Shown here in pieces: positions 43,677 through 59,154 of a stretch of DNA of 64,000 bases (the stretch's first letter is position 1; each line of letters starts with the position of its first letter). The stretch lies in IMG/VR virus record IMGVR_UViG_3300047557_002442, positions 37,220 to 101,219 of that record. The stretch is one strand, 5' to 3'. Source of the DNA: a virus. Both the position numbers and the translations under genes were made by a program. Under the pieces are notes generated by a model. It saw only the letters and a program-made list of their open reading frames with translations. It had not been told where the DNA came from and ran no database searches.

Positions 43677-44884
43677 TTATATACACCCAGCAAATAAAGA
43701 TAAAGTAAGCTAATCCCCATGCAGCACCCCAACCCATACCAATCATTATAGCTACGATTATGTTGAGAATGAATGCCATAAACTTAGACATTCATATATT
43801 CCTGAATTAAACCAGCAACGATACGTTCGTCCATATTCATTAGCTGAGATATCTCTTCTATAGAATACTGTGCTCTCAAATACTCTTCAATGGTTCCTAA
43901 CGTATTTTCTAACTGTCGTTTAGTATAACTCATTTGTTTTTCCTCATCAGAAATAATACTATCTCTTTTTCTGAAATTTAAGTCAACATAGTCATCTATA
44001 CGATCCAATGCGTCAGTTTGTTCGTAGGAATCTTGGAACGGATTCACCATAGCTACTCCTGCTTAGATTCAGCGTCATCAATAGCTCGGGTCAATATACT
44101 TAATAGAATGTCATTAGCAACTTTCTGGAACTCGTCCATCTCAGACTCAATAAATCTTGATGTACTGTATAGATTATACTCTAATAAACTCTCATCCTCT
44201 TCATTGACCTTGATGTCCTGGTATGTATATTCAATACCTTCGTACTTACCTTCTGTAATTTTGATGAATGGTATGTCATCATGCATAACAACGACATACT
44301 CAGGTATAGTTAACGTAACATCTTGAATTTCAATAGTTTTCATTCTTCATCCTTCATAATGTGGTGATCATGCACATAGATACTAGTGATAATACCACAT
44401 GCCCCACCTATTGCTGTAAAAAGTAACACAGTTAATCCACCAGTGGCGGCATACTTAACAAAAATAAAATTTGATACACTAATCAACATACTAGTAATTG
44501 CTGCTGCAGCATACTTACTATGCATGACGTTCTTACTCTGCATTCCAAGTAATCCAACTAAAAAGAATGCTGATACGAATACTATAACACAATCCCAAAA
44601 ACTCATAATAACCCCTTGATATATTTGTACATTTGTACATAGTATCTAAATTGCTTGGGTTCGTGCGTTGGACTCGATAGAGTGCCAAACAACTCGTACA
44701 TACTATCTAAATGCTGATTTAACTCTTCATCTGTCATAATTATCTATCTGTTTAGTATTTAAGTCAACACTTCTTATACTTACCACAGTTTTCCTCATCA
44801 TACTTCTGGTTATTCTTTATGATCTGGTGTAGAATGTAGGCATTTGAGCCTATGAACACAGCGTTCTGCTGTGCAGACATATTA

Positions 44885-45406
44885 CTACATCCACTTATCG
44901 TTATAGAAAGCAATAAGCTCATTAGCACCTTTGTCTTGCCGTTCATACGCTTCTTTCTCCCATGGTTGGTTCATATACGCATTATGTGTGGTTCCCATAT
45001 TCATACACTTCTTTTGTTCCCACATCCAACATGCTTTATTCATATTCCATTCCAAGCGCTTAGTCATATACTGTTCAGCATGCACAAGTTCATGTGCCAT
45101 AGTCTTAGCAAGACGTGACAATCGTTGGTTTATGTTGAAGTCAATCTCTACACAAATATACTTATTGTTTCCTACACATCTACCAGCTACACCATTGGCC
45201 TTGATATGTCGTAGTACAAACTTGATAGGTAGTTTCTTTTTGACTTTTGCGTTGATCTTAGGTACAAGTGTACGCTTCGCAGCCTTACAGACTCTGCGGA
45301 ACTCATTTATCATCTTTTCTGCATTGATAGTGGAATACTTCACCTGGTGTGAAACATACACGTTTGTATCTATTTCTACATCTGATGGTTTAATATATGT
45401 CGTCAT
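44885..45406 (-). CDS. HExxH zinc metalloprotease-like protein
   Basis: AHELVHAEQY...PWEKEA. Confidence 0.7.
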   Translation of the reverse strand: MTTYIKPSDVEIDTNVYVSHQVKYSTINAEKMINEFRRVCKAAKRTLVPKINAKVKKKLPIKFVLRHIKANGVAGRCVGNNKYICVEIDFNINQRLSRLAKTMAHELVHAEQYMTKRLEWNMNKACWMWEQKKCMNMGTTHNAYMNQPWEKEAYERQDKGANELIAFYNDKWM

Positions 45407-45469
45407 TCTGTCTCCTTAACTTTAGTCATTATCGAATGAATAGAATATTAAGTCAACACTGAGAGTTGA

Positions 45470-45548
45470 TGGTGGGTCCCGTGGGATTCGAACCCACTAT
45501 CTATCGGTTATGAGCCGATTGCTTATACCAGATTTAAGCTTGAGACCC
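45470..45548 (-). tRNA. tRNA-Ile2/Met (CAU)
   Basis: Cloverleaf, anticodon loop ctCATaa, encoded CCA. Confidence 0.85.
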
Positions 45549-45550
45549 TT

Positions 45551-45624
45551 TGGAGCGGGATAAGGGAATCGAACCCTCACCAAAAGATTGGAAATCTTTT
45601 GTTCTGCCATTAAACTAATCCCGC
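45551..45624 (-). tRNA. tRNA-Gly (UCC)
   Basis: ttTCCaa loop, CCA. Confidence 0.9.
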
Positions 45625-45625
45625 A

Positions 45626-45815
45626 GTCCAACTGTTAGCAACTTATGTCCTCACCGTTGGCGTTTGGACGGCCTAATACGTTTAGGAAGACGTTTGGGAG
45701 TTATCCTCCCTAATGACCGAATCCTCATACGTCTATAAGGCAATAACTGTAAATTCAGTTTAGCATTTGCACCCTGACACTACATCGCAGGACAAAGTGG
45801 CTCGGTTCATTTATA
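45626..45815 (-). ncRNA. Candidate structured RNA
   Basis: ORF-free and GC-elevated; hairpins GGGAG-gataa-CTCCC and GACGT/ACGTC. Confidence 0.35.
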
Positions 45816-46382
45816 CTATGCTGCAAATCTTGAATATCTTGGTAGCTTAGCCTTCAAGTAATCCATTTGGTCAGCAACAACGTTTCTGTTTTGTAAAATA
45901 AAATGTTCCCAACGACATGGTCTATATGGAACATACAGTAAGTGCATTTTAGCTTCTTCTGGTGTTCTGTTAGACTTTGTTTCGTTACAGTCCTTACATG
46001 CAGTTACAGAGTTTTCCCAAGCATTAGTACCACCACGACTTTTTGGAAGTACATGGTCTCTTGTTAGCTTTTCAGGATGAAACTCTCCACCGCAGTAGGC
46101 ACAGATATGATGGTCTCTACGGAACAGTAAATGGTTGCCATGTGTATTGATAGTTGGTCTATCAAACCGACGTTTGCATTCACCTTCAATAGCGATAATA
46201 GATTTGGCAACAATCACACTACGGTCGCCAGTTTTTCTTTGAGTACCACCATGGAACGTAGCTATGTCATCACCTAGCTCCCATACTACTTTGTCTGATG
46301 CATAGTAGTGAATGGCTTCTTCCATAGAAAGCCATTTGAATGGATTGCCAGCAATGTCCAAACCTAATATTCTAACGTCCAC
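45816..46382 (-). CDS. HNH endonuclease
   Basis: CAYCG, TRDHVLPKSRGG, WENSVTACKDCN. Confidence 0.9.
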   Translation of the reverse strand: MDVRILGLDIAGNPFKWLSMEEAIHYYASDKVVWELGDDIATFHGGTQRKTGDRSVIVAKSIIAIEGECKRRFDRPTINTHGNHLLFRRDHHICAYCGGEFHPEKLTRDHVLPKSRGGTNAWENSVTACKDCNETKSNRTPEEAKMHLLYVPYRPCRWEHFILQNRNVVADQMDYLKAKLPRYSRFAA

Positions 46383-46390
46383 GATATCTC

Positions 46391-46807
46391 CTATTCCACT
46401 TCTATCCAGGTGTAATCACCCAGCCATTTTACTTGACAGATATAATCATAATGTTTAGGTGCACCACAACTCCAGTCTGTTGGACCATGTCGCGTTAGTA
46501 GTGTACCACCACGCTTCATATCTCTGGCTAGCCAGTATGTTTCTCCATTATGAATCTGGAAGTCATACTTAGCAGCATGTACCCAATCCGTTACTTCTAA
46601 CCTTCGTTTGATACTCTCGGCCTGTTTCTGTAGTACCTTAACAAGGTCCATGATACGGTCATACTCTTGTTGAGCGTGCATACGAGCAACATTCAACATC
46701 ACATCCTTTTGCTGAGTAACTGGAACCAACTCGAACTTTGGTGCTCCTATATCCATTGGATATGTGAGACTGTGATGCCGCATTGGATCTTGATCAGTTA
46801 TTTTCAT
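46391..46807 (-). CDS. DUF2452-like protein
   Basis: YP...GAPKF, GETY.L, P.DW, LGD.TW. Confidence 0.55.
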   Translation of the reverse strand: MKITDQDPMRHHSLTYPMDIGAPKFELVPVTQQKDVMLNVARMHAQQEYDRIMDLVKVLQKQAESIKRRLEVTDWVHAAKYDFQIHNGETYWLARDMKRGGTLLTRHGPTDWSCGAPKHYDYICQVKWLGDYTWIEVE

Positions 46808-46845
46808 ATCATAATATTCATTGACAACTTGGATGTTTTATTTAT

Positions 46846-46920
46846 TGGTAGGAGCACAGAGACTCGAACTCTGAAAGTCTGGTTAAAAGCCAGATATGAT
46901 AGCCATTTCATCATACTCCC
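46846..46920 (-). tRNA. tRNA-Lys (UUU)
   Basis: ctTTTaa loop, CCA. Confidence 0.9.
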
Positions 46921-46922
46921 AT

Positions 46923-46999
46923 TGGTGCGGATGGTCAGATTCGAACCGACACTTTACGGATTTTAAGTCCGTTGACTCTACCTATTGGCCTACATCCGC
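46923..46999 (-). tRNA. tRNA-Leu (UAA), short variable arm
   Basis: ctTAAaa loop, CCA. Confidence 0.88.
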
Positions 47000-47061
47000 A
47001 GCTGGAACTTCATAGAGATACAGGCTCTCAGTTCCGATTGCTTTCCTGTATTGCATTATAT

Positions 47062-47138
47062 TGGTGCCCAAGGAGGGATTCGAACCCACACTGTACAGTG
47101 TTTGAAACTGTCGCCTCTACCTATTGCGCTACTTGGGC
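47062..47138 (-). tRNA. tRNA-Leu (CAA), short variable arm
   Basis: ttCAAac loop, CCA. Confidence 0.85.
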
Positions 47139-47189
47139 ATTGTCTTACCTGTAAGTCATATTACGAATTATGACTTAGATATAAGTGAC

Positions 47190-47264
47190 TGGTGGTAATG
47201 AGTGGACTTGAACCACTAACATTCTCCGTATGAAGGAGGTGGACTACCATTGTCCTACATTACC
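47190..47264 (-). tRNA. tRNA-Met (CAU)
   Basis: ttCATac loop, CCA. Confidence 0.85.
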
Positions 47265-47271
47265 TAAATTC

Positions 47272-47346
47272 TGGGGTCACCGAGGAGGTTCGAACTCCCA
47301 CTGTAAGAGCCACAATCTTACGTGCTGCCATTACACTACGGTCACC
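47272..47346 (-). tRNA. tRNA-His (GUG)
   Basis: ttGTGgc loop, G-1/C73, CCA. Confidence 0.9.
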
Positions 47347-47449
47347 ATTGTTGCTGTTCTCCCCCACTCTCGGATTGCAGCATATATGAGCTTAACGTAC
47401 TCATATTCCCTAGAACGTCTACAGGCATAGGCGCCTACCCTGTAAATTC

Positions 47450-47523
47450 TGGCTCCGGTGGAGGGAATCGAACCCCCACTAACGGTTTTGGAGACCGCTG
47501 CGCTACCATTACGCCACACCGAA
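47450..47523 (-). tRNA. tRNA-Trp (CCA)
   Basis: ctCCAaa loop, CCA. Confidence 0.9.
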
Positions 47524-47531
47524 GTAAAACT

Positions 47532-47609
47532 TGGAGCATAGAGTGGGATTTGAACCCACGGGGTTACAGTTTTGCAGACTGTTGCTTTGGACCACTCAGC
47601 CATCTATGC
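47532..47609 (-). tRNA. tRNA-Cys (GCA)
   Basis: ctGCAaa loop, U73, CCA. Confidence 0.9.
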
Positions 47610-48014
47610 TTCGATTGGGAACAACTCCGTAAACTTAGCTGTCATAATTTCAACTAACTTAGGGTCTCTATAAGCATAGTCATCTTCGATCTCTAAGTTG
47701 ATTACTTGTTTGTAACTAAAGTCTGTAATCACATTTGCCAATTCATTCTGCATAGCATTGATTTCGAGTTGCTGGAATGAATCCATACAAAGTATAACAT
47801 CAGCCCAAACAACCAATGCATGTGTTACAGGAACAATGGCATATTCCAAACTGGTCCCTGCACATCTGGTATTAAAATTCCAAGGTGGGCTGCTAAGTAT
47901 ATGAGCAGCGGTAGGAGAGCGCAAACAACCAGCGCTACACACAGTAAGTACTCGGCGATGTCTTCCTTGATACGCATTTTGCACAACTCCTAATTGATTT
48001 CTTTTAATCATCAT
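47604..48014 (-). CDS. Low-molecular-weight PTP-like phosphatase
   Basis: VCSAGCLRSPTA (Cx5R), WADVILCM, IEDDY. Confidence 0.8.
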   Translation of the reverse strand: MMIKRNQLGVVQNAYQGRHRRVLTVCSAGCLRSPTAAHILSSPPWNFNTRCAGTSLEYAIVPVTHALVVWADVILCMDSFQQLEINAMQNELANVITDFSYKQVINLEIEDDYAYRDPKLVEIMTAKFTELFPIEA

Positions 48015-48060
48015 TTACTCCAAGAAATACATTATCATGTATCGCATTTATTAAGTCAAC

Positions 48061-48136
48061 TGGTAGGACCCCACAGAATCGAACTGTGTCCTCATGCTCT
48101 TCAGGCACGCGCGCAGACCACGTACGCCAGAGTCCT
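48061..48136 (-). tRNA. tRNA-Phe (GAA)
   Basis: ctGAAga loop, CCA. Confidence 0.88.
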
Positions 48137-48143
48137 ATAAATC

Positions 48144-48220
48144 TGGTCCTCGGAGGTGGAATCGAACCACCACTCTATCGATTATCAGTCGATTGTTTTG
48201 AACCATTAAACTACCCGAGG
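48144..48220 (-). tRNA. tRNA-Ile (GAU)
   Basis: ctGATaa loop, CCA. Confidence 0.9.
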
Positions 48221-48222
48221 TT

Positions 48223-48297
48223 TGGCGCGGCTGGTAGGATTCGAACCTACATAAGAGGGCTTAGAAGACCCTTGCACATCCCTTGTACCACAACCGC
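48223..48297 (-). tRNA. tRNA-Arg (UCU)
   Basis: ctTCTaa loop, CCA. Confidence 0.9.
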
Positions 48298-48302
48298 AAA
48301 AC

Positions 48303-48378
48303 TGGCACCCTTGGAAGGAATCGAACCTCCATCATGACGTTCGTAGCGTCGTATTCTAATCCGTTGAACTACAAGGGT
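48303..48378 (-). tRNA. tRNA-Arg (ACG)
   Basis: ctACGaa loop, CCA. Confidence 0.9.
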
Positions 48379-48379
48379 A

Positions 48380-48889
48380 TTACTCTTCCACAATCTCGTC
48401 GTCAGCCATCAAGATTGGACATAATTTTTCTACACTGTCAAACATATGTCTGAGTCTATTTTTATCATATCCATACGAGTCTAATTTGTTTAATACTTTT
48501 TCATTAAAGTCTGGAGCAGCTTCTCTATGATGACGGTGATGTCTATAGAATGAATGCATTCTAAACAATCCATATGCATGCTTTGTTGATAAAGCCATAA
48601 TTGCACATGCACTATCACAATGATCTAAACTATACCAATAAACGTTTCCATGTTTATTAACTGCATCCATTGCTTCAAACAAATCAGCACTTGTGCCACC
48701 AGCACTTGAAACATAGAAACTTATAGTCTTGTTAGGATTACTCTTAACTATTTGAATAATCTCATCATACTCTTCTTTGTCTAGCTTACCGACTATTCTA
48801 TATTCACTGTCAGCTACCTTCTGTACTACAGGAATAGTAGCAGTACAAGCAGTTAATAATAAAAGTATGAATATAAGTTTCACATGCAT
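48380..48889 (-). CDS. Lipoprotein with ClpP/crotonase-like motifs
   Basis: LLLTAC lipobox, SAGG, CDSACA. Confidence 0.5.
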   Translation of the reverse strand: MHVKLIFILLLLTACTATIPVVQKVADSEYRIVGKLDKEEYDEIIQIVKSNPNKTISFYVSSAGGTSADLFEAMDAVNKHGNVYWYSLDHCDSACAIMALSTKHAYGLFRMHSFYRHHRHHREAAPDFNEKVLNKLDSYGYDKNRLRHMFDSVEKLCPILMADDEIVEE

Positions 48890-48895
48890 CCTAAT

Positions 48896-48971
48896 TGGCG
48901 ACCCGTAAGGGAATCGAACCCTTATGTCCCACTAGACAGGCGGGCATAATAATCCACTATATGAACGGGCC
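48896..48971 (-). tRNA. tRNA-Asp (GUC)
   Basis: ctGTCta loop, CCA. Confidence 0.9.
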
Positions 48972-48976
48972 AAAAC

Positions 48977-49050
48977 TGGTTGCGGGCGTCCGAATTGCAC
49001 GGCGTCTCGAGCTTATGAGGCTCGCGAGCTACTGTTGCTCCACCCCCGCA
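48977..49050 (-). tRNA. tRNA-fMet-like (CAU)
   Basis: TGCGGGG 5' end, ctCATaa loop, AACCA end; atypical T-loop. Confidence 0.75.
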
Positions 49051-49056
49051 GTAATC

Positions 49057-49132
49057 TGGTGCCCCCTGTCGGATTTGAACTGACAACCTATCGCTTACAA
49101 GGCGATTGCACTACCAATTGTGCTAAAGAGGC
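49057..49132 (-). tRNA. tRNA-Thr (UGU)
   Basis: ctTGTaa loop, CCA. Confidence 0.9.
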
Positions 49133-49133
49133 A

Positions 49134-49209
49134 TGGTACTCAGTGTAGGAATCGAACCTACATAATCTATCTTGTAAGGATAGTCTCTAACCACTCGAGT
49201 CAACTGAGT
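49134..49209 (-). tRNA. tRNA-Val (UAC)
   Basis: ctTACaa loop, CCA. Confidence 0.9.
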
Positions 49210-49211
49210 AT

Positions 49212-49424
49212 AGGTGTTAAGCTACTCGCACTACCGAGCCCTTAACTGAGGTGTTTACCCTGTCTCAACTGTGGCCCTTATGGATGGTACAGTCTCAACC
49301 CACGAATCTTTCAAGGCTCCCTACAACGGGACTTCGAGGTGGCCGCTAAGCCGTATCGTGTGCACCCTGCTCTTATGGTTTGGCAATTACCCACTTTCTT
49401 CAAGTAAAAGTGTAAACTAGTGTT
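49212..49424 (-). ncRNA. Candidate structured RNA of about 210 nt between tRNAs
   Basis: ORF-free and GC-elevated; hairpins GTTAAG..CTTAAC, CACTTT..AAAGTG, ACTGT..ACAGT. Confidence 0.45.
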
Positions 49425-49425
49425 C

Positions 49426-49499
49426 TGGAGCGGATAACGAGGTTCGAACTCGTGATTCAACCTTGGCAAGGTCGTGTATTACCACTATACTATATCCGC
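49426..49499 (-). tRNA. tRNA-Gly (GCC)
   Basis: ttGCCaa loop, CCA. Confidence 0.9.
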
Positions 49500-49500
49500 A

Positions 49501-49560
49501 TGGTGGGGTGTCTTAACAGTGTACTTCCGACACCCCGAACACGTAATGTACACACGTGCC
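49501..49560 (-). ncRNA. Two-hairpin RNA ending in ACCA
   Basis: GGCACGU/ACGUGUU and GGGGUGUC/GACACCCC stems with complementary loops. Confidence 0.45.
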
Positions 49561-49567
49561 TGCAGCT

Positions 49568-49639
49568 TGGTGGACCGTGAGGGAGTCGAACCCTCCAGGA
49601 GTTGCGTGCAAGGCATCTCTGTACCCCGGTACACAGCCC
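49568..49639 (-). tRNA. tRNA-Ala (UGC)
   Basis: ctTGCac loop, G3-U70, CCA. Confidence 0.85.
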
Positions 49640-49713
49640 ATAATACATCTAGGCACTGATGAGTCAGTTGTTTAAAACTAGCGCTCAATGGAATCCCGCT
49701 TCGTTCCTAAAAC

Positions 49714-49789
49714 TGGTCTCGCATGAAGGACTCGAACCTTCGAACTCTCCGCCCCAAACGGAGTGGTATAGCCGCTAACCGAATGCGAG
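49714..49789 (-). tRNA. tRNA-Pro (UGG)
   Basis: ttTGGgg loop, CCA. Confidence 0.9.
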
Positions 49790-49796
49790 ATAAAAC

Positions 49797-49873
49797 TGGC
49801 TGCCTAGGGAGGGCTCGAACCTCCGACATCCTGATTAACAGTCAGGCGCAACTACCAACTGTGCTACTAGACA
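49797..49873 (-). tRNA. tRNA-Asn (GUU)
   Basis: ctGTTaa loop, CCA. Confidence 0.9.
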
Positions 49874-49989
49874 ATAATTCTTGGGATCATGTTGGCCAAG
49901 GCCTTTTTCGTGCTTGGCGCCGCGATCCCTCCGGCCTCCTCCCCACAACTTCAATTGTTGCCGCTCAAAGTTGCCCGAGGATATTTGTT

Positions 49990-50067
49990 TGGTGGGCTCT
50001 CTCGGACTCGAACCGAGACGCAACTCGTTCTAAGCGAGCTAGGTATGCCAATTCCCGTCAAAAGCCC
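49990..50067 (-). tRNA. tRNA-Leu (UAG), short variable arm
   Basis: ctTAGaa loop, CCA. Confidence 0.85.
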
Positions 50068-50069
50068 TT

Positions 50070-50161
50070 TGGCGGAGAATATTGGATTTGAACCAATGAT
50101 ACGATTTTACTCATATTCCTTCTTAGCAGGAAGGTGTCTTAAACCACTCGACCAATTCTCC
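50070..50161 (-). tRNA. tRNA-Ser (GCU)
   Basis: ctGCTaa loop, long variable arm, GCCA. Confidence 0.9.
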
Positions 50162-50518
50162 GTATTCTGTTTCAGGGTCAATAATAAGAACTGTTCTAGG
50201 TACTATATTTTTATTAATATACACAACCTTATTATCATCTGCCAAGTAGAATGCCCACCCATCAATTAACGTACGATCAACAGGGACAACCTTACCATTT
50301 ACAACAGACTTTGATGCTAATTCGTATCTATTTGACACCCTATTTTTTATTCGCTCTCTATATTTTACTTGCAATCTATATGTCTGTCCACATTCATCAA
50401 CTGCAATTAAATCAATAGGGGAATGATCATCAAATGCAGGAAACACATAGAATCCCTTTTCTTGAAGATCATCAATAACTTTAATTAACCCTTTAACACC
50501 TTTTTGATTTACATTCAT
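50123..50518 (-). CDS. Free-standing PD-(D/E)XK endonuclease (homing-endonuclease-like)
   Basis: N.KG, PIDLIA...RLQVKYR. Confidence 0.7.
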   Translation of the reverse strand: MNVNQKGVKGLIKVIDDLQEKGFYVFPAFDDHSPIDLIAVDECGQTYRLQVKYRERIKNRVSNRYELASKSVVNGKVVPVDRTLIDGWAFYLADDNKVVYINKNIVPRTVLIIDPETEYGELVEWFKTPSC

Positions 50519-50650
50519 AATTATATCCTAAATAATTATTTATGTAAGCCCAGAGGTTGAGTCAACCTCTGTTACAAATAAAATTGGGCGGTTTTCTACG
50601 CTCTCCTAACCTCGAATACATTAAGTCGTAGCTTTCTCCCAAAATAAAAC

Positions 50651-50741
50651 TGGCGGAAGGATGGCGGAATCGAACCCCTGGCTATCCCTAGCTCGCTCTG
50701 CTTTCAAAACAGACGCAACATCCCCGGTTGCATAACCTTCC
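50651..50741 (-). tRNA. tRNA-Ser (UGA)
   Basis: ttTGAaa loop, long variable arm, GCCA. Confidence 0.88.
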
Positions 50742-50748
50742 GTAAAAC

Positions 50749-50823
50749 TGGCAGAGGTACTAGGACTCGAACCTAGACGAACAGCTTCAAAGACTGTTGT
50801 GCTAACCATTACACTATACCCCA
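50749..50823 (-). tRNA. tRNA-Gln (UUG)
   Basis: ctTTGaa loop, CCA. Confidence 0.9.
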
Positions 50824-50830
50824 ACAAAAC

Positions 50831-50913
50831 TGGTGGGTGTTGAGGGAATCGAACCCCCTTGCCGAAGCAACTGTTTTACAGACAGCCGTCAATTCCAGTA
50901 TGACCTAACACCC
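50831..50913 (-). tRNA. tRNA-Tyr (GUA)
   Basis: ctGTAaa loop, variable arm, CCA. Confidence 0.9.
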
Positions 50914-50917
50914 AATA

Positions 50918-51066
50918 ACCATATAGAAACACACTCTGACTCATCCATTTGGCGTCGACTCCTTTTGAATGCGTTGGATTAATAACCCTCCAACCAGGAC
51001 CCTTTCGGTCTTCATTACTCATAGCTCGCGATCTAATTTCATGAATTGAATGTGCTTTTATATGGT
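50918..51066 (-). ncRNA. Candidate structured RNA closed by a stem of about 19 bp
   Basis: ACCATATAAAAGCACATTC pairs with GAGTGTGTTTCTATATGGT; internal GACC-GAAA hairpin. Confidence 0.45.
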
Positions 51067-51138
51067 ACACGGTACGGGAATCGAACCCGTCCTACTGACG
51101 TGAAAGGCCAGTGTTCTAAACCGATAAACTAACCGTGT
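51063..51138 (-). tRNA. tRNA-Glu (UUC)
   Basis: ctTTCac loop, CCA. Confidence 0.9.
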
Positions 51139-51150
51139 GTAAAAACATCC

Positions 51151-51165
51151 AAATTGTTAAAGAAC
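51151..51165 (-). promoter_or_regulatory. rrn-type boxA antitermination signal
   Basis: GTTCTTTAACAATTT versus rrn leader GCTCTTTAACAATTT. Confidence 0.6.
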
Positions 51166-51192
51166 TATACAACTAATTAAATATTATGTCAA
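51164..51192 (-). promoter_or_regulatory. Sigma70-type promoter directly upstream of the first tRNA
   Basis: TTGACA-17bp-TATAGT. Confidence 0.65.
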
Positions 51193-51210
51193 CAACTTTT
51201 TCAATACCGC

Positions 51211-51247
51211 AAAAACAAAAACCCCGAGATTTTTTAGGTCTCGGGGT
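51211..51247 (-). terminator. Intrinsic terminator (attenuator) upstream of the tRNA array
   Basis: ACCCCGAGA/TCTCGGGGT stem followed by TTTTGTTTTT. Confidence 0.85.
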
Positions 51248-51276
51248 CTGTGTATACTTTTATTGTACTATTAGGT

Positions 51277-51399
51277 TCACATACCCGAGTCCTTGAAATG
51301 ATTATAATCCCATGAGGCTACAATCGTAGCAAAGCCGCGCTCTGTTCTCACGGAACTGAGTGCTATCTGCGTCGGTTGTTTTAACATGGGTTGTAACAT
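51277..51399 (-). CDS. Putative 40-aa leader peptide (not in the ORF track)
   Basis: MLQPMLKQPTQIALSSVRTERGFATIVASWDYNHFKDSGM*; GAGAG upstream; lies between promoter and terminator. Confidence 0.65.
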   Translation of the reverse strand: MLQPMLKQPTQIALSSVRTERGFATIVASWDYNHFKDSGM

Positions 51400-51431
51400 T
51401 TCTTTTCTCTCGTAAATTTCAATATGTGACT

Positions 51432-51460
51432 ATTGTATCTTTTATTTATAATAAAGTCAA
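51432..51460 (-). promoter_or_regulatory. Nested early (TTGACT-17-TACAAT) and late (TATAAATA, 51443-51450) promoters for the leader
   Basis: Direct match to both consensus sequences. Confidence 0.7.
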
Positions 51461-51509
51461 CAGAGGAACACAAATAATATGAAAATAATTTCAAATGAAG
51501 ACTTTATAT

Positions 51510-51517
51510 TATAAATA
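51510..51517 (+). promoter_or_regulatory. T4 late promoter heading the plus-strand operon
   Basis: Exact TATAAATA followed by AGGAGG and GTG at 51535. Confidence 0.65.
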
Positions 51518-51534
51518 TAACAGGAGGAATAGCT

Positions 51535-51810
51535 GTGGATTTTTTTAAACTTGTAGCAGAAGTAGGTTTTCCAATTGCCGCAGCTGTTGCTGCTGGTTAC
51601 TTTGTCTTCTTAACTTTAAAGTTCATTCTTGCAGGAGTTACATCTTCTGTCAAAGGAATGAGTGGTATCATCACAGCTCTTGATAAAAGAGTAGCAACCA
51701 TGAACCATGATGTTGTACGCATTGATACAAAAGTTAGTCATGCTTTAGGTATCCCACCTGATTTAGATAGAATCGCACGTGCCGAGCAATCTGACGCTCG
51801 TCGTGACTAA
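51535..51810 (+). CDS. Small membrane protein (GFPI motif, YvrJ/holin-like)
   Basis: EVGFPIAAA TM plus coiled coil. Confidence 0.55.
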   Translation: MDFFKLVAEVGFPIAAAVAAGYFVFLTLKFILAGVTSSVKGMSGIITALDKRVATMNHDVVRIDTKVSHALGIPPDLDRIARAEQSDARRD

Positions 51811-52045
51811 ATCAACTACCTATCACTTTGATTTCATTATATTTTTGATGTAATGAATGACTCTTAAATTATTACGTTTCTGATTTTATTATATTTTTAT
51901 TAACTTAATATTAAGGACATAATATGTTCAAAGAACGTAATCTCATGTTCCAAAAGGAACGTGATCGTATGATATGGACTGATCTGGATTTGGCGATTGG
52001 TTGTGTCGTAGCTTATTTCATTGGTATGATTATAGGATTTCTATT

Positions 52046-52318
52046 ATGGATATAGCAGCATTAATTAGCAAGTATGGGTTTCCTATAGTTGCGGCAGCAG
52101 GATTAGGGTATTTTGTTTTCTATGTATGGAAGTGGGTAACAACTGACATTAAGCCAGTTGTTGGTGAATCGAATCAAGTTCTTATTAACTTGATCGATCG
52201 CGTAAGAATGTTAGATAACGACCTAATCAGATTAAATCAAAGAGTAAACGTTTATCTTTCATTGAAAGAATCAAATGATAAAAAATCTACCAATAATATT
52301 GATAGCAGTAGTAACTAG
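52046..52318 (+). CDS. Small membrane protein, paralogue of 51535
   Basis: KYGFPIVAAAG.GYF TM; LIDRVRMLDNDLIR matches LDKRVATMNHDVVR. Confidence 0.55.
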   Translation: MDIAALISKYGFPIVAAAGLGYFVFYVWKWVTTDIKPVVGESNQVLINLIDRVRMLDNDLIRLNQRVNVYLSLKESNDKKSTNNIDSSSN

Positions 52319-52754
52319 CGTATATGGTGGTGAACTTGTACATCAATTTAATAGCCCTTCCTTCAATGGACAAGGGTTCAGTAGTCACGTATTAACAATC
52401 AAGCAATTAGAAGATCAAGCAAAAGAAAAAAATGAAGCTGCTGAAGATGCAATAAGAGCAAGAGCAGAAGCAGCTGCAAAAGATACCCCACAAGCAAGAT
52501 TCATTGCAAACTTAGAATCACGTATATACAGTCAACTTGCAAAACAATTAACAGATAGTATGTTCGGTGAAGGTGCTACATGTGTAACACCAGGTGTGAT
52601 ATGTGGTACAATTGATAACCTAGGTGGTAATTCTATCACTTGGATGCTTGGTGAAGGTAGTAATTCTGGTAACATTGTTATTACAATCCAGGACTTAAAC
52701 AACAGTAGTAACAGAACAGTAATGGCCGTACCTGTTGGTACGTTCTATTTCTAG
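52275..52754 (+). CDS. csgF: CsgF-like curli assembly protein
   Basis: Signal peptide, then GELVHQFNSPSFNG resembling the CsgF N-terminus (F.NP.F.G); LESRIYSQL; directly upstream of csgG. Confidence 0.75.
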   Translation: MIKNLPIILIAVVTSVYGGELVHQFNSPSFNGQGFSSHVLTIKQLEDQAKEKNEAAEDAIRARAEAAAKDTPQARFIANLESRIYSQLAKQLTDSMFGEGATCVTPGVICGTIDNLGGNSITWMLGEGSNSGNIVITIQDLNNSSNRTVMAVPVGTFYF

Positions 52755-57129: not shown

Positions 57130-59154
57130 ATGAAAAGATTGCTTTCGCCATGGCTTGCACTTTTAACTCTTTCACTTCTTGTTGTTCTAAGAATTTCAGA
57201 TCCGAGTTTCATTGAGAGTATTAGATTAAGATATTTCGACACTCTAATCACAAGCCAGCCTCAAACAATATCCCAACAAATACATGTAGTTAACATCGAT
57301 GATGCAGCCATAAATAAGTATGGTCAATATCCATTCCCGAGAGGTCAATATGCAGAAATTATACAACATCTTTACAGCAATGGTGCTGGGTTGGTTGTTG
57401 CTGGGCTGTATCTTCCTGACAGTGATCGTTTTGGACAGGACAGTCGACTGGCTGACATCCTGGATAAGCACCCTGTAGTCTTTCCACATACTGGAGTTGA
57501 TTATGAGGTTAATAAAGAAATTTATAGACCAGGTGTGTCCGAAATTGGTAGTCCTGCTTCTTCTTTTGCCGTTAGTTATCCTGGTATACTACCCAACGTT
57601 CCTGCTGTTAATGAACATGCTGCTGGTATTGGAGTAGTTAATGTTCTGCCTGAGATTGATGGTGTGGTTCGTCGTGTACCTATGGTCGTTGCCAGTGCTG
57701 GCAGACTCTACCCATCCATTACTCTTGAGACCCTTAGAGTCGCAGCAGGGGATCCAAGTTTCCAAGTCAAATCCTCAGACTATGGAATCGAAGCAGTTAG
57801 AATCCCTCACTTCAAAACAATCCAAACAGATGCTATCGGAAGAGTCTGGATTGACTGGTCTACAAAACCAACAGAACATTCACTTGCGAATCTACCGAAA
57901 TCTTTCGACGGATCAATTGTTATATTGGGAGTCACTGCTAGGGGACTCAACAACCCAGTTGCGACCGCCAGAGGAGAGATCTATCCTCATTATCTACAAT
58001 CTGCCATATTAGATACTCTTGTATCTGGAAAGAACATAAGCAGACCTGATTGGATGGATGGGGCTGAAATACTTGGTACAATTTTATTAGCTATTATAGC
58101 TATTCTTTTAACGAGGTGGACATATGGGTTTGTGGCTTTTGGTATTATTATCGGTGCTGTATATTATACTAGCAGTAGTGCATTTGGGACGTACTCCTAC
58201 TTGGTTGACTGTAGCTTCCCAATTGTTAGTCTATGCTTTGTTTATATACATTCTTATACAGTCAAGTTCCTGTCTGAGCTAAAACAGAAACTCCAAATAA
58301 AGAAACAATTCGGTACATACTTGTCTCCTGCAATGGTTGAAAAGTTGCAGAAGAATCCAGAGCTTTTAGCTTTGGGTGGTGAGTCAAGAGAGTTGTCTAT
58401 TATGTTTACGGATGTTCGTGGTTTCACTACTATCTCTGAACATTATGGTAAAGATGTACAAGGTCTAACCAAGATTATGAACCGTTACATGACTGCTATG
58501 ACTCGTAAGATTATAGACAATAACGGTACACTTGACAAATACATTGGTGATGCACAGATGGCATTCTGGAATGCTCCATTAGATGAACCTAACCATGCTA
58601 AGAAAGCTGTCAAGACTGCATTAGAGATGCTTGAAGATTTGGAAGCATTCAATACTGAAATTAAACGAGAAGGTATACCAGCTTTTGGTATGGGTCTTGG
58701 TATCAATACTGACACAGTTGTTGTTGGTAACATGGGTTCCGATCAACGTTTTGATTATACTTGTCTTGGTGATGGAGTCAATCTAGCTTCAAGACTTGAA
58801 GGTCAAAGCAAACCTTATGGTGTTAAGATTGTAATTGGTTCTAAGACGGCTGAACAAGTTAAAGATGAATACCCAGTTGTTGAATTGGATTGTATTGCTG
58901 TTAAAGGTAAAACAGAAGGTGTTAACATTTATAGTATATGTGCTTATCAAGAAGACCACTACAAACTTCATAAGAAGTACTTAAAAGCATACTATGATGG
59001 TAATTGGGAAGATGGCGGAGCTATTTTCCTTGCGACACAACTTTCTGCAGATGGTCCACCAGATATGAGACAATACTATCTTAATATGATAGAAAGAATG
59101 TCTGAAGGTAAGCCTGATAACTGGGATGGTACATACAGAGCTACGTCAAAGTAG
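57130..59154 (+). CDS. CHASE2-domain class III adenylate cyclase
   Basis: VNIDD....YGQ.P.PR and DGVVRR (CHASE2), 3 TM, FTDVRGFT, DKYIGDA, YT.LGD.VNLASRLE. Confidence 0.93.
   Translation: MKRLLSPWLALLTLSLLVVLRISDPSFIESIRLRYFDTLITSQPQTISQQIHVVNIDDAAINKYGQYPFPRGQYAEIIQHLYSNGAGLVVAGLYLPDSDRFGQDSRLADILDKHPVVFPHTGVDYEVNKEIYRPGVSEIGSPASSFAVSYPGILPNVPAVNEHAAGIGVVNVLPEIDGVVRRVPMVVASAGRLYPSITLETLRVAAGDPSFQVKSSDYGIEAVRIPHFKTIQTDAIGRVWIDWSTKPTEHSLANLPKSFDGSIVILGVTARGLNNPVATARGEIYPHYLQSAILDTLVSGKNISRPDWMDGAEILGTILLAIIAILLTRWTYGFVAFGIIIGAVYYTSSSAFGTYSYLVDCSFPIVSLCFVYIHSYTVKFLSELKQKLQIKKQFGTYLSPAMVEKLQKNPELLALGGESRELSIMFTDVRGFTTISEHYGKDVQGLTKIMNRYMTAMTRKIIDNNGTLDKYIGDAQMAFWNAPLDEPNHAKKAVKTALEMLEDLEAFNTEIKREGIPAFGMGLGINTDTVVVGNMGSDQRFDYTCLGDGVNLASRLEGQSKPYGVKIVIGSKTAEQVKDEYPVVELDCIAVKGKTEGVNIYSICAYQEDHYKLHKKYLKAYYDGNWEDGGAIFLATQLSADGPPDMRQYYLNMIERMSEGKPDNWDGTYRATSK

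Follow-up and report, generated by a model that had tools for sequence, protein, structure and literature searches.

The locus analysed here lies in a window of 64,000 nt (hereafter W) from a 101-kb IMG/VR record of a lake phage, and its features are given in the coordinates of this window, on the minus strand (Table 1). A short open reading frame (the leader ORF) is located between a promoter, P1, and an intrinsic terminator, which is followed by a second promoter, P2, by a motif resembling the boxA of rrn operons and by a large array of tRNA genes. A preliminary description of this DNA had listed P1, the ORF, the pairing of its end with the terminator, the terminator itself, a second promoter, boxA and 27 tRNAs, and our analysis agrees with it in all particulars. 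This includes the proposed nesting of early and late promoters, with the T4-late-like motif TATAAATA at 51450 in the spacer of the sigma70-type P1. The same motif occurs in three copies in total on the minus strand of the window and is missing at the P1 position from the main family of relatives described below. The count of tRNA genes is the sum of 26 ARAGORN predictions and one Rfam prediction (48981-49049, minus strand; 41 bits), which ARAGORN missed. The terminator (-17.1 kcal/mol) escaped a simple scanner because of its 9-nt loop.

Table 1. Elements of the tRNA leader locus in W (position 1 is the first nucleotide of the window).
Feature	Position	Strand	Support
P1, sigma70-type leader promoter TTGACT-17-TACAAT	51432..51460	-	10/12 consensus match
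TATAAATA, T4-late-like, in the P1 spacer	51443..51450	-	motif match
5' UTR, about 25-32 nt; SD-like GAGAG at 51411-51407, 7 nt before the ATG	51400..51431	-	
Leader ORF, 40 codons and TGA	51277..51399	-	35 distinct codons, 19/20 amino acids
Antiterminator 5' strand (last five codons and stop)	51277..51292	-	fold; equivalent strand covaries in relatives
Antiterminator 3' strand, overlapping the terminator 5' arm	51237..51253	-	fold
Intrinsic terminator: 11-bp GC-rich stem, 9-nt loop, U run	51211..51249	-	fold; homologous stem covaries in relatives
P2, strong sigma70-type promoter TTGACA-17-TATAGT	51164..51192	-	11/12 consensus match
rrn-boxA-like motif, overlapping the P2 -10	51151..51165	-	motif match; conserved in relatives
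Array of 27 tRNA genes, all 20 amino acids, few interspersed ORFs	45470..51138	-	ARAGORN and Rfam

The phage is distantly related to the Methylophilales phage Melnitz and the Pelagibacter phage HTVC008M. A 674-aa protein (57130-59154, plus strand) exhibits 39% identity with the adenylate/guanylate cyclase of both, which places the W phage near this group of T4-like phages of streamlined aquatic bacteria; on kinship alone, Methylophilales or freshwater SAR11-like bacteria are candidate hosts. Comparison of the region with cultured phages (megablast and blastn) returned tRNA-like matches only, and so did a scan of positions 44000-52500 against Rfam, in which the leader was left unmatched. No homologue of the W leader peptide was found among 5.8 billion proteins, and a tblastn search of cultured phages with a family leader gave no credible match. 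Contigs from two RNA sequencing runs contained only tRNA-like parts and the neighbouring gene, and are silent on the expression of the leader. A variant strain of the W phage, represented by contigs from two other studies, differs at 14 positions within 50831-51800 and at none within 51145-51476, the segment that spans P1, the leader, the terminator and P2.

Within the array, a 131-aa ORF assigned to phrog_5018 (50123-50518, minus strand) overlaps the beginning of the tRNA-Ser(gct) gene. The five relatives closest to it, in contigs L082-L086 of other phages (58-67% identity), are found directly before or overlapping a tRNA-Ser gene as well (gct, or act in L083). The gene may be mobile or of the homing type, and linked to this tRNA.

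Relatives of the locus in uncultured phages

All members of the family found here come from uncultured phages. The first set was collected from an alignment of the leader peptides of five relatives and comprises 61 loci, corresponding to 48 distinct nucleotide versions. The second set was collected by a search with the boxA motif alone, blind to the peptide, which added 41 loci of the group; here the ORF was chosen only by its position, with the stop codon 35-85 nt before the U run, and a single ORF was found in 40 of the 41 cases. Two other approaches were unproductive. The divergent neighbouring gene (51535-51810) led to 80 relatives, none with tRNA genes within 4 kb and with intergenic DNA that fails to align with W, and this route was dropped; the long contigs among them carry arrays of 25-29 tRNA genes elsewhere. 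A motif common to W and contig G001 (a GCTAC-loop-GTAGCC hairpin followed by ATGG), tried as a family signature, retrieved only identical copies of G001 and chance matches, and the MAFFT alignment of W with G001 was uninformative.

About 100 contigs of related uncultured phages exhibit the layout of W before arrays of 24-29 tRNA genes, with leader ORFs of 31-46 codons, and the ORF is intact at all of these approximately 100 loci. Six array-bearing relatives, including G001, possess the entire succession of promoter, ORF (31-43 codons), pairing between the ORF end and the terminator arm, terminator, boxA-like motif and first tRNA gene. The expectation, voiced in the preliminary description, that a leader and a terminator would be found before related tRNA arrays, with the diversity of the leader conserved, was tested on these new data and came true. 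A search for leaders with at least 17 amino-acid types before a terminator and a tRNA gene found none in other tRNA-rich phages (G021, G023, G009 and the jumbo G024 and G025); the sole case was L102.

Codon diversity and amino-acid completeness of the leader

The leader ORF of W lacks Cys codons only, and its GC content is 45.5% (50% at third positions), compared to 38.9% in the window. Windows of 40 codons from the long ORFs of W contain on average 25.3 distinct codons (sd 2.5, 10,669 windows) and at most 33, and the 35 distinct codons of the leader are never reached; in sequences simulated with the leader's own base composition, at least 35 distinct codons occur with P = 0.006. The comparison of codon counts suggested in the preliminary description hence places the leader above all windows of the long ORFs. 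Among the 143 ATG-initiated ORFs of 31-45 aa in the window, the leader is the only one with at least 19 amino-acid types. One could argue that this diversity is a matter of chance, produced by a locally balanced base composition and picked post hoc, given the simulated probability and the fact that 35 distinct codons are reached by two of the 207 small ORFs of W, and that a small ORF other than the leader reaches 36. Taken alone, the W leader is indeed a post-hoc pick, and therefore the test had to come from relatives.

In the first set, all 42 distinct peptides (31-45 aa) contain 19 or 20 types of amino acids, and 27 of them contain all 20. The set found via boxA comprises 32 distinct leaders, 19 of them new; again all 32 have 19-20 types, and the complete set is present in 24. 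As a null model we used windows from 486 proteins of these phages: segments of 40 aa contain 15.3 +/- 1.9 types, with P = 0.023 for at least 19 and P = 0.002 for all 20, while the probability of all 20 types in 37 residues is 0.001 and that of at least 19 types in 31 residues is 0.002. Completeness is shared by at least four types of peptides: besides the main clade and W itself, these are L102b/L241, with 19 amino acids represented in 31 aa, and L199/L214, with all 20 in 35 aa. Compared to the profile HMM of the main clade, W and L102b obtain scores of about 0 bits; the separateness of L199/L214 and L241 was judged by eye only, and L241 resembles L102b. With completeness replicated in two sets of relatives unselected for composition, at P of about 0.002 per all-20 peptide and in four types, chance as the source of the diversity in W is barely credible.

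The way in which the rare residues are distributed is informative. In 40 peptides of the main clade, Cys, His, Tyr, Trp, Asp and Gln are present in 1.00-1.10 copies per peptide. Tyr occurs exactly once in each of the 40, spread over six alignment columns; Gln uses seven columns and Cys four, the latter residue occupying one of two main sites and both of them in only one peptide. Peptides with Gln in place of the His in the KHLP block have a His a few residues upstream. On the other hand, the Trp column is fixed in 40/40 and the Asp column in 37/40 peptides. Shuffling of residues within columns reduced the mean number of types from 19.68 to 18.34 +/- 0.11 and the share of all-20 peptides from 67.5% to 12.3%, and none of 2000 shuffles matched the observed mean, a statistic that overstates significance since the related sequences are not independent. 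Both the direction of the effect and the mutual exclusion of positions are as expected under selection for "one of each". Relocation of a single Cys, His, Tyr or Gln is a rare and clean sign that composition, rather than sequence, is selected, and the amino-acid completeness of this "pangram" leader is, as read from the sequences, under selection.

The leader ORF is probably translated, as indicated indirectly by the selection for completeness in the reading frame, with its compensating residue positions, and by synonymous changes, which among the family leaders make up 0.40 of the single-base codon differences, compared to the expected 0.23. This value is also what would be anticipated if the ORF encoded a small trans-acting protein with a terminator of its own, whose adjacency to the tRNA genes is inherited and whose 3' hairpin merely stabilises the mRNA. 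The main clade does keep a recognizable peptide, with the KHLPL.SGW block, in which Trp, Pro and Arg are invariant, and with a GFGK end; this partial conservation could reflect a function of the peptide itself. In this respect the preliminary description, which expected divergent peptides, holds between the four types and not within the main clade, where the conserved block also encodes a small hairpin. However, a functional fold does not need a set of 20 amino acids in 31-46 residues, in four types of peptides and with single copies that relocate, and the W peptide is devoid of homologues even among billions of proteins.

A 40-codon ORF with all 20 amino acids was also noticed in L107 (10053-10175, plus strand), within an apparent longer coding region and 460 nt before a tRNA-Met gene. 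It is probably a product of chance, since no terminator follows it.

Correspondence between leaders and tRNA arrays

The arrays located behind the leaders comprise 24-29 tRNA genes for 18-20 amino acids. Under strict wobble rules, 21-26 of the 23-27 anticodon species in an array have a cognate codon in the respective leader (e.g. 25/25 in L177 and 26/27 in L169), while random 40-codon windows of phage genes cover approximately 17 species (P <= 0.009 in the relatives and 0.027 in W). The number of copies of an amino acid in the leader correlates with the number of the respective tRNA genes (rho 0.58). We also considered whether the amino acid that a leader lacks (Val in most cases) corresponds to a tRNA absent from the array, and found no match: Val is absent from 12 of the 40 main-family peptides, and tRNA-Val is encoded in the four of these whose arrays were read; the leader of W lacks Cys, although its array contains tRNA-Cys.

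A tRNA with the anticodon CUA (of the amber-suppressor type, labelled Pyl by ARAGORN) is present in the arrays of L100, L102, L107, L175 and L181, and some of the leaders that match such arrays end in TAG. The CUA tRNA could read this codon through into the region of the switch described below.

Mutually exclusive RNA structures

The alignment used for the analysis of covariation comprises 40 versions and covers the final 11 codons and the sequence up to the U run. In the antiterminator helix 90.4% of cells are paired, with 22 doubly changed cells in six pairs, and the score of 0.165 exceeds that of shuffled alignments (0.126 +/- 0.007; 0/500) and of slid controls (at most 0.076). In the terminator 96.9% of cells are paired, with 14 doubly changed cells in three pairs and a score of 0.119, compared to 0.037 in shuffles (0/500). 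The two helices have columns 73-75 and 80-86 in common and are therefore mutually exclusive. According to the parsed folds, the stop codon lies within the 5' strand of the antiterminator, and the 5' arm of the terminator begins 20-31 nt after the stop. The same construction of the switch is found in the L199 and L241 types. The residues at the C-terminus of the peptide vary freely while the pairing is retained, which, together with the mutual exclusion of the 3' hairpin and the terminator, speaks against a trans-acting protein with a stabilising hairpin.

In the six relatives that were folded (G001, L134, L108, L166, L148 and L102b), the RNA that precedes synthesis of the terminator 3' arm attains -23 to -27 kcal/mol, compared to -14 to -18 kcal/mol for the terminator. 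In these relatives the former fold is both stronger and transcribed first, so that read-through would be the default unless a ribosome is present on the end of the ORF. In W, the pairing of the ORF end with the 5' arm, proposed in the preliminary description, is seen when the RNA is folded as it stands prior to synthesis of the 3' arm. It is not clearly stronger than the terminator, and the minimum-energy fold of the full-length RNA has the terminator formed. The proposed alternative between terminator and antiterminator is thus conserved and covaries in the relatives, but its antiterminator is weaker in W than in them. Moreover, the 5' UTR of W can pair with the 3' end of the ORF, as a possible anti-antiterminator that may add a trp-like state of "no translation, terminate". 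For this reason the earlier claim that loss of translation gives read-through is uncertain for W.

A further hairpin of 5 bp lies inside the ORF, in the codons of Pro-Leu-x-Ser-Gly; 16 of 19 distinct versions retain it, one change being compensatory, and it may serve as a pause site for the polymerase. This hairpin bears on the interpretation of the leader as an arrest peptide similar to TnaC or SecM, in which the nascent chain would stall in response to a ligand or a factor and so set termination independently of the tRNA supply. The conserved block of the main clade with its invariant Trp, Pro and Arg would suit such a peptide, as would the leaderless mRNA described below, tightly coupled to transcription. 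However, the nucleotide conservation of the block is also explained by the hairpin, and the architecture and completeness are kept in W and L102b, which score about 0 bits against the main clade, as well as in L199 and L241, which are blockless by eye. Since arrest would moreover leave the amino-acid completeness unexplained, we find this interpretation decidedly unlikely.

Promoters and boxA-like motifs

In 33 of the 48 versions of the family, the terminator is separated from the gene for tRNA-Gln by only 44-49 nt, which contain boxA and no promoter. There the leader promoter is the nearest promoter of the array, and, judged by sequence, the tRNA genes would depend on read-through of the terminator. 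A strong promoter after the terminator is present in 13 listed versions, including W, G001 and L102b. In W this is P2, and the caveat of the preliminary description, which had noted a second promoter at this point, is well taken. P2 bypasses the switch, rendering the array independent of read-through, and the switch would act only on transcripts from P1; in W it would be an add-on rather than the sole gate. The presence of such promoters in W and 12 relatives is in keeping with a trans-acting protein encoded in a unit of its own, but this idea does not account for the 33 versions in which the tRNA genes have no nearby promoter of their own, and together with the features of the peptide and the RNA discussed above this makes it, in our judgement, unlikely.

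The stretch from P1 to the terminator could also specify a short, insulated transcript or a small RNA that has no connection with translation, with the tRNA genes driven by P2 or by internal promoters. The fold of the W leader RNA is unusually good (z = -5), the third codon positions of the leader differ in GC content from those of the W phage genes, and P2 is available. Nevertheless, it is the reading frame that is complete and that carries rare residues in exactly one copy, which constraints on RNA cannot produce, the ORF is invariably intact, and P2 is missing from most relatives; such a transcript is a very unlikely explanation.

The distance from the -10 hexamer to the ATG is only 6-7 nt in 46 of the 48 main-family versions, whose leader mRNA is therefore leaderless; the 5' UTRs of W, L102b and G001 are roughly 30-55 nt long. 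The boxA-like motif is found just before the first tRNA gene in nearly all relatives, in L134, for example, at a distance of about 90 nt from the leader ORF. It occurs in one copy in each of four complete genomes, while the reversed pattern, used as a control, gave 0. In W the motif overlaps the -10 element of P2, so transcripts from P2 may lack an intact copy of boxA. In versions without P2, a hairpin of 3-4 bp with a constant CAUCGU loop and a varying stem precedes boxA, which is the boxB-boxA order of rrn leaders.

A module composed of a hairpin and a sigma70-type promoter was noticed 70 nt upstream of leader ORFs (e.g. in L110 and L127), and resembles the promoter-early-stem-loop cassettes of T4-type phages. 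It also occurs between the terminator and boxA in L110, L112, L148, L165 and L192, with three modules in a row in L192; in some genomes these extra modules constitute the bypass promoter P2. In the unrelated, GC-rich phage contigs L195, L223 and L259, a boxA-like motif is located 26-114 nt before a tRNA gene, and in L195 a terminator and a short Thr/Val-rich ORF lie upstream of it.

A putative attenuator and its relationship to known systems

We regard it as probable that the locus is a ribosome-mediated transcription attenuator placed before a phage tRNA operon, with a leader selected to hold every amino acid. RNA polymerase would start at P1 and transcribe the leader ORF, whose last five codons and stop would provide the 5' strand of a hairpin with the 5' arm of the terminator as its 3' strand. 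If translation proceeds smoothly to the stop, the ribosome would cover the 5' strand, the terminator would fold and transcription would end. If some aminoacyl-tRNA is scarce, the ribosome would be delayed at any one of the earlier codons, the antiterminator would form first, and the polymerase would pass the boxA-like site into the tRNA genes; the phage tRNAs would then relieve the shortage, closing a loop of negative feedback. The dependence of read-through on stalling, and the resulting change in tRNA output, are predicted from the arrangement of the sequence elements. With less assurance, we lean towards a broader reading, in which the leader is a general gauge of the pool of charged tRNAs: the shortage or destruction of any single tRNA would open the complete replacement set, followed by shut-off through feedback. 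Host anticodon nucleases and host shut-off would be possible triggers of such a gauge.

Attenuators of amino-acid operons are well known, both with leaders for a single amino acid (trpL, hisL, leuL, pheL) and with multivalent ones (thrL and the ilvGMEDA leader). The W system shares with the trp/his type a short ORF between a promoter and an intrinsic terminator, an antiterminator that uses the 5' arm of the terminator, and, as proposed, the logic: the antiterminator is masked once a ribosome has reached the stop, while stalling permits read-through. For this reason it should not be called the inverse of classical attenuators, as had been suggested earlier; only the codon content differs. Runs of a single codon are replaced by roughly one codon per amino acid, for all 20, and the presumed target genes encode tRNAs rather than biosynthetic enzymes. 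In addition, the main clade lacks the upstream 1:2 pairing and has a leaderless mRNA. The enrichment of cognate codons that characterizes attenuators is present in a new form, with 19-20 amino acids in the leaders and arrays for 18-20.

In the pyrBI and pyrE operons of E. coli, a ribosome close to the polymerase prevents formation of the terminator, and the signal is the UTP-dependent pausing of the polymerase. They resemble the W system in the lack of amino-acid-specific regulatory codons and in the read-out, which is the closeness of ribosome and polymerase, but here the terminator would be favoured by a ribosome that has arrived at the stop, and the speed of decoding is presumed to be the signal. 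T-box riboswitches sense the charging state of tRNA through the choice between a terminator and an antiterminator, as is proposed for the W system. In contrast to it, they do so by direct binding of one specific uncharged tRNA, with no part played by translation, and control genes of synthetases and amino-acid metabolism. As for rrn operons, GTTCTTTAACAATTT matches the core of their boxA and is likewise found at the head of a long untranslated RNA operon, where binding of factors is putative. Unlike the rrn boxA, the motif is located downstream of the attenuator and hence cannot override it, and in W it overlaps the -10 of P2.

Leaderless short ORFs with polycysteine runs in mycobacteria are reported to attenuate the genes downstream in the operon in response to amino-acid supply (10.1101/834739). 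As described there, they sense one amino acid, through Cys runs, and regulate protein-coding genes, in contrast to the leaders discussed here. There is also a resemblance to the trn operon of Anabaena, with 26 tRNA genes induced by translational stress (PMC8421152). It, too, is a complete auxiliary set of tRNA genes, and impaired translation turns it on, as would be the case in W. That report contains no mention of a leader, an attenuator or a terminator, and control of the operon is attributed to a transcriptional repressor, TrcR, in a further report (PMC10272220). Searches of the full-text literature for control of tRNA genes by a leader peptide, or for a leader with all amino acids, retrieved no description of either.

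Implications for phage tRNA arrays

To our knowledge, the way in which phages control their own tRNA genes is largely unknown. The role of complete tRNA sets in phages has been debated, with codon usage, host shut-off and escape from tRNA-cleaving defences as the candidates. If our interpretation is correct, the complete set would be deployed on demand, upon decoding trouble of any kind. The element is small, with sigma70-type promoters and an intrinsic terminator, and is therefore directly testable in a cell-free system; it could also be put to use as a small, naturally occurring reporter for overall decoding capacity. The leader would be the first known case of a regulatory ORF under selection for amino-acid completeness, and attenuation, which in its classical form concerns one amino acid and one pathway, would be extended to the supply of translation as a whole.
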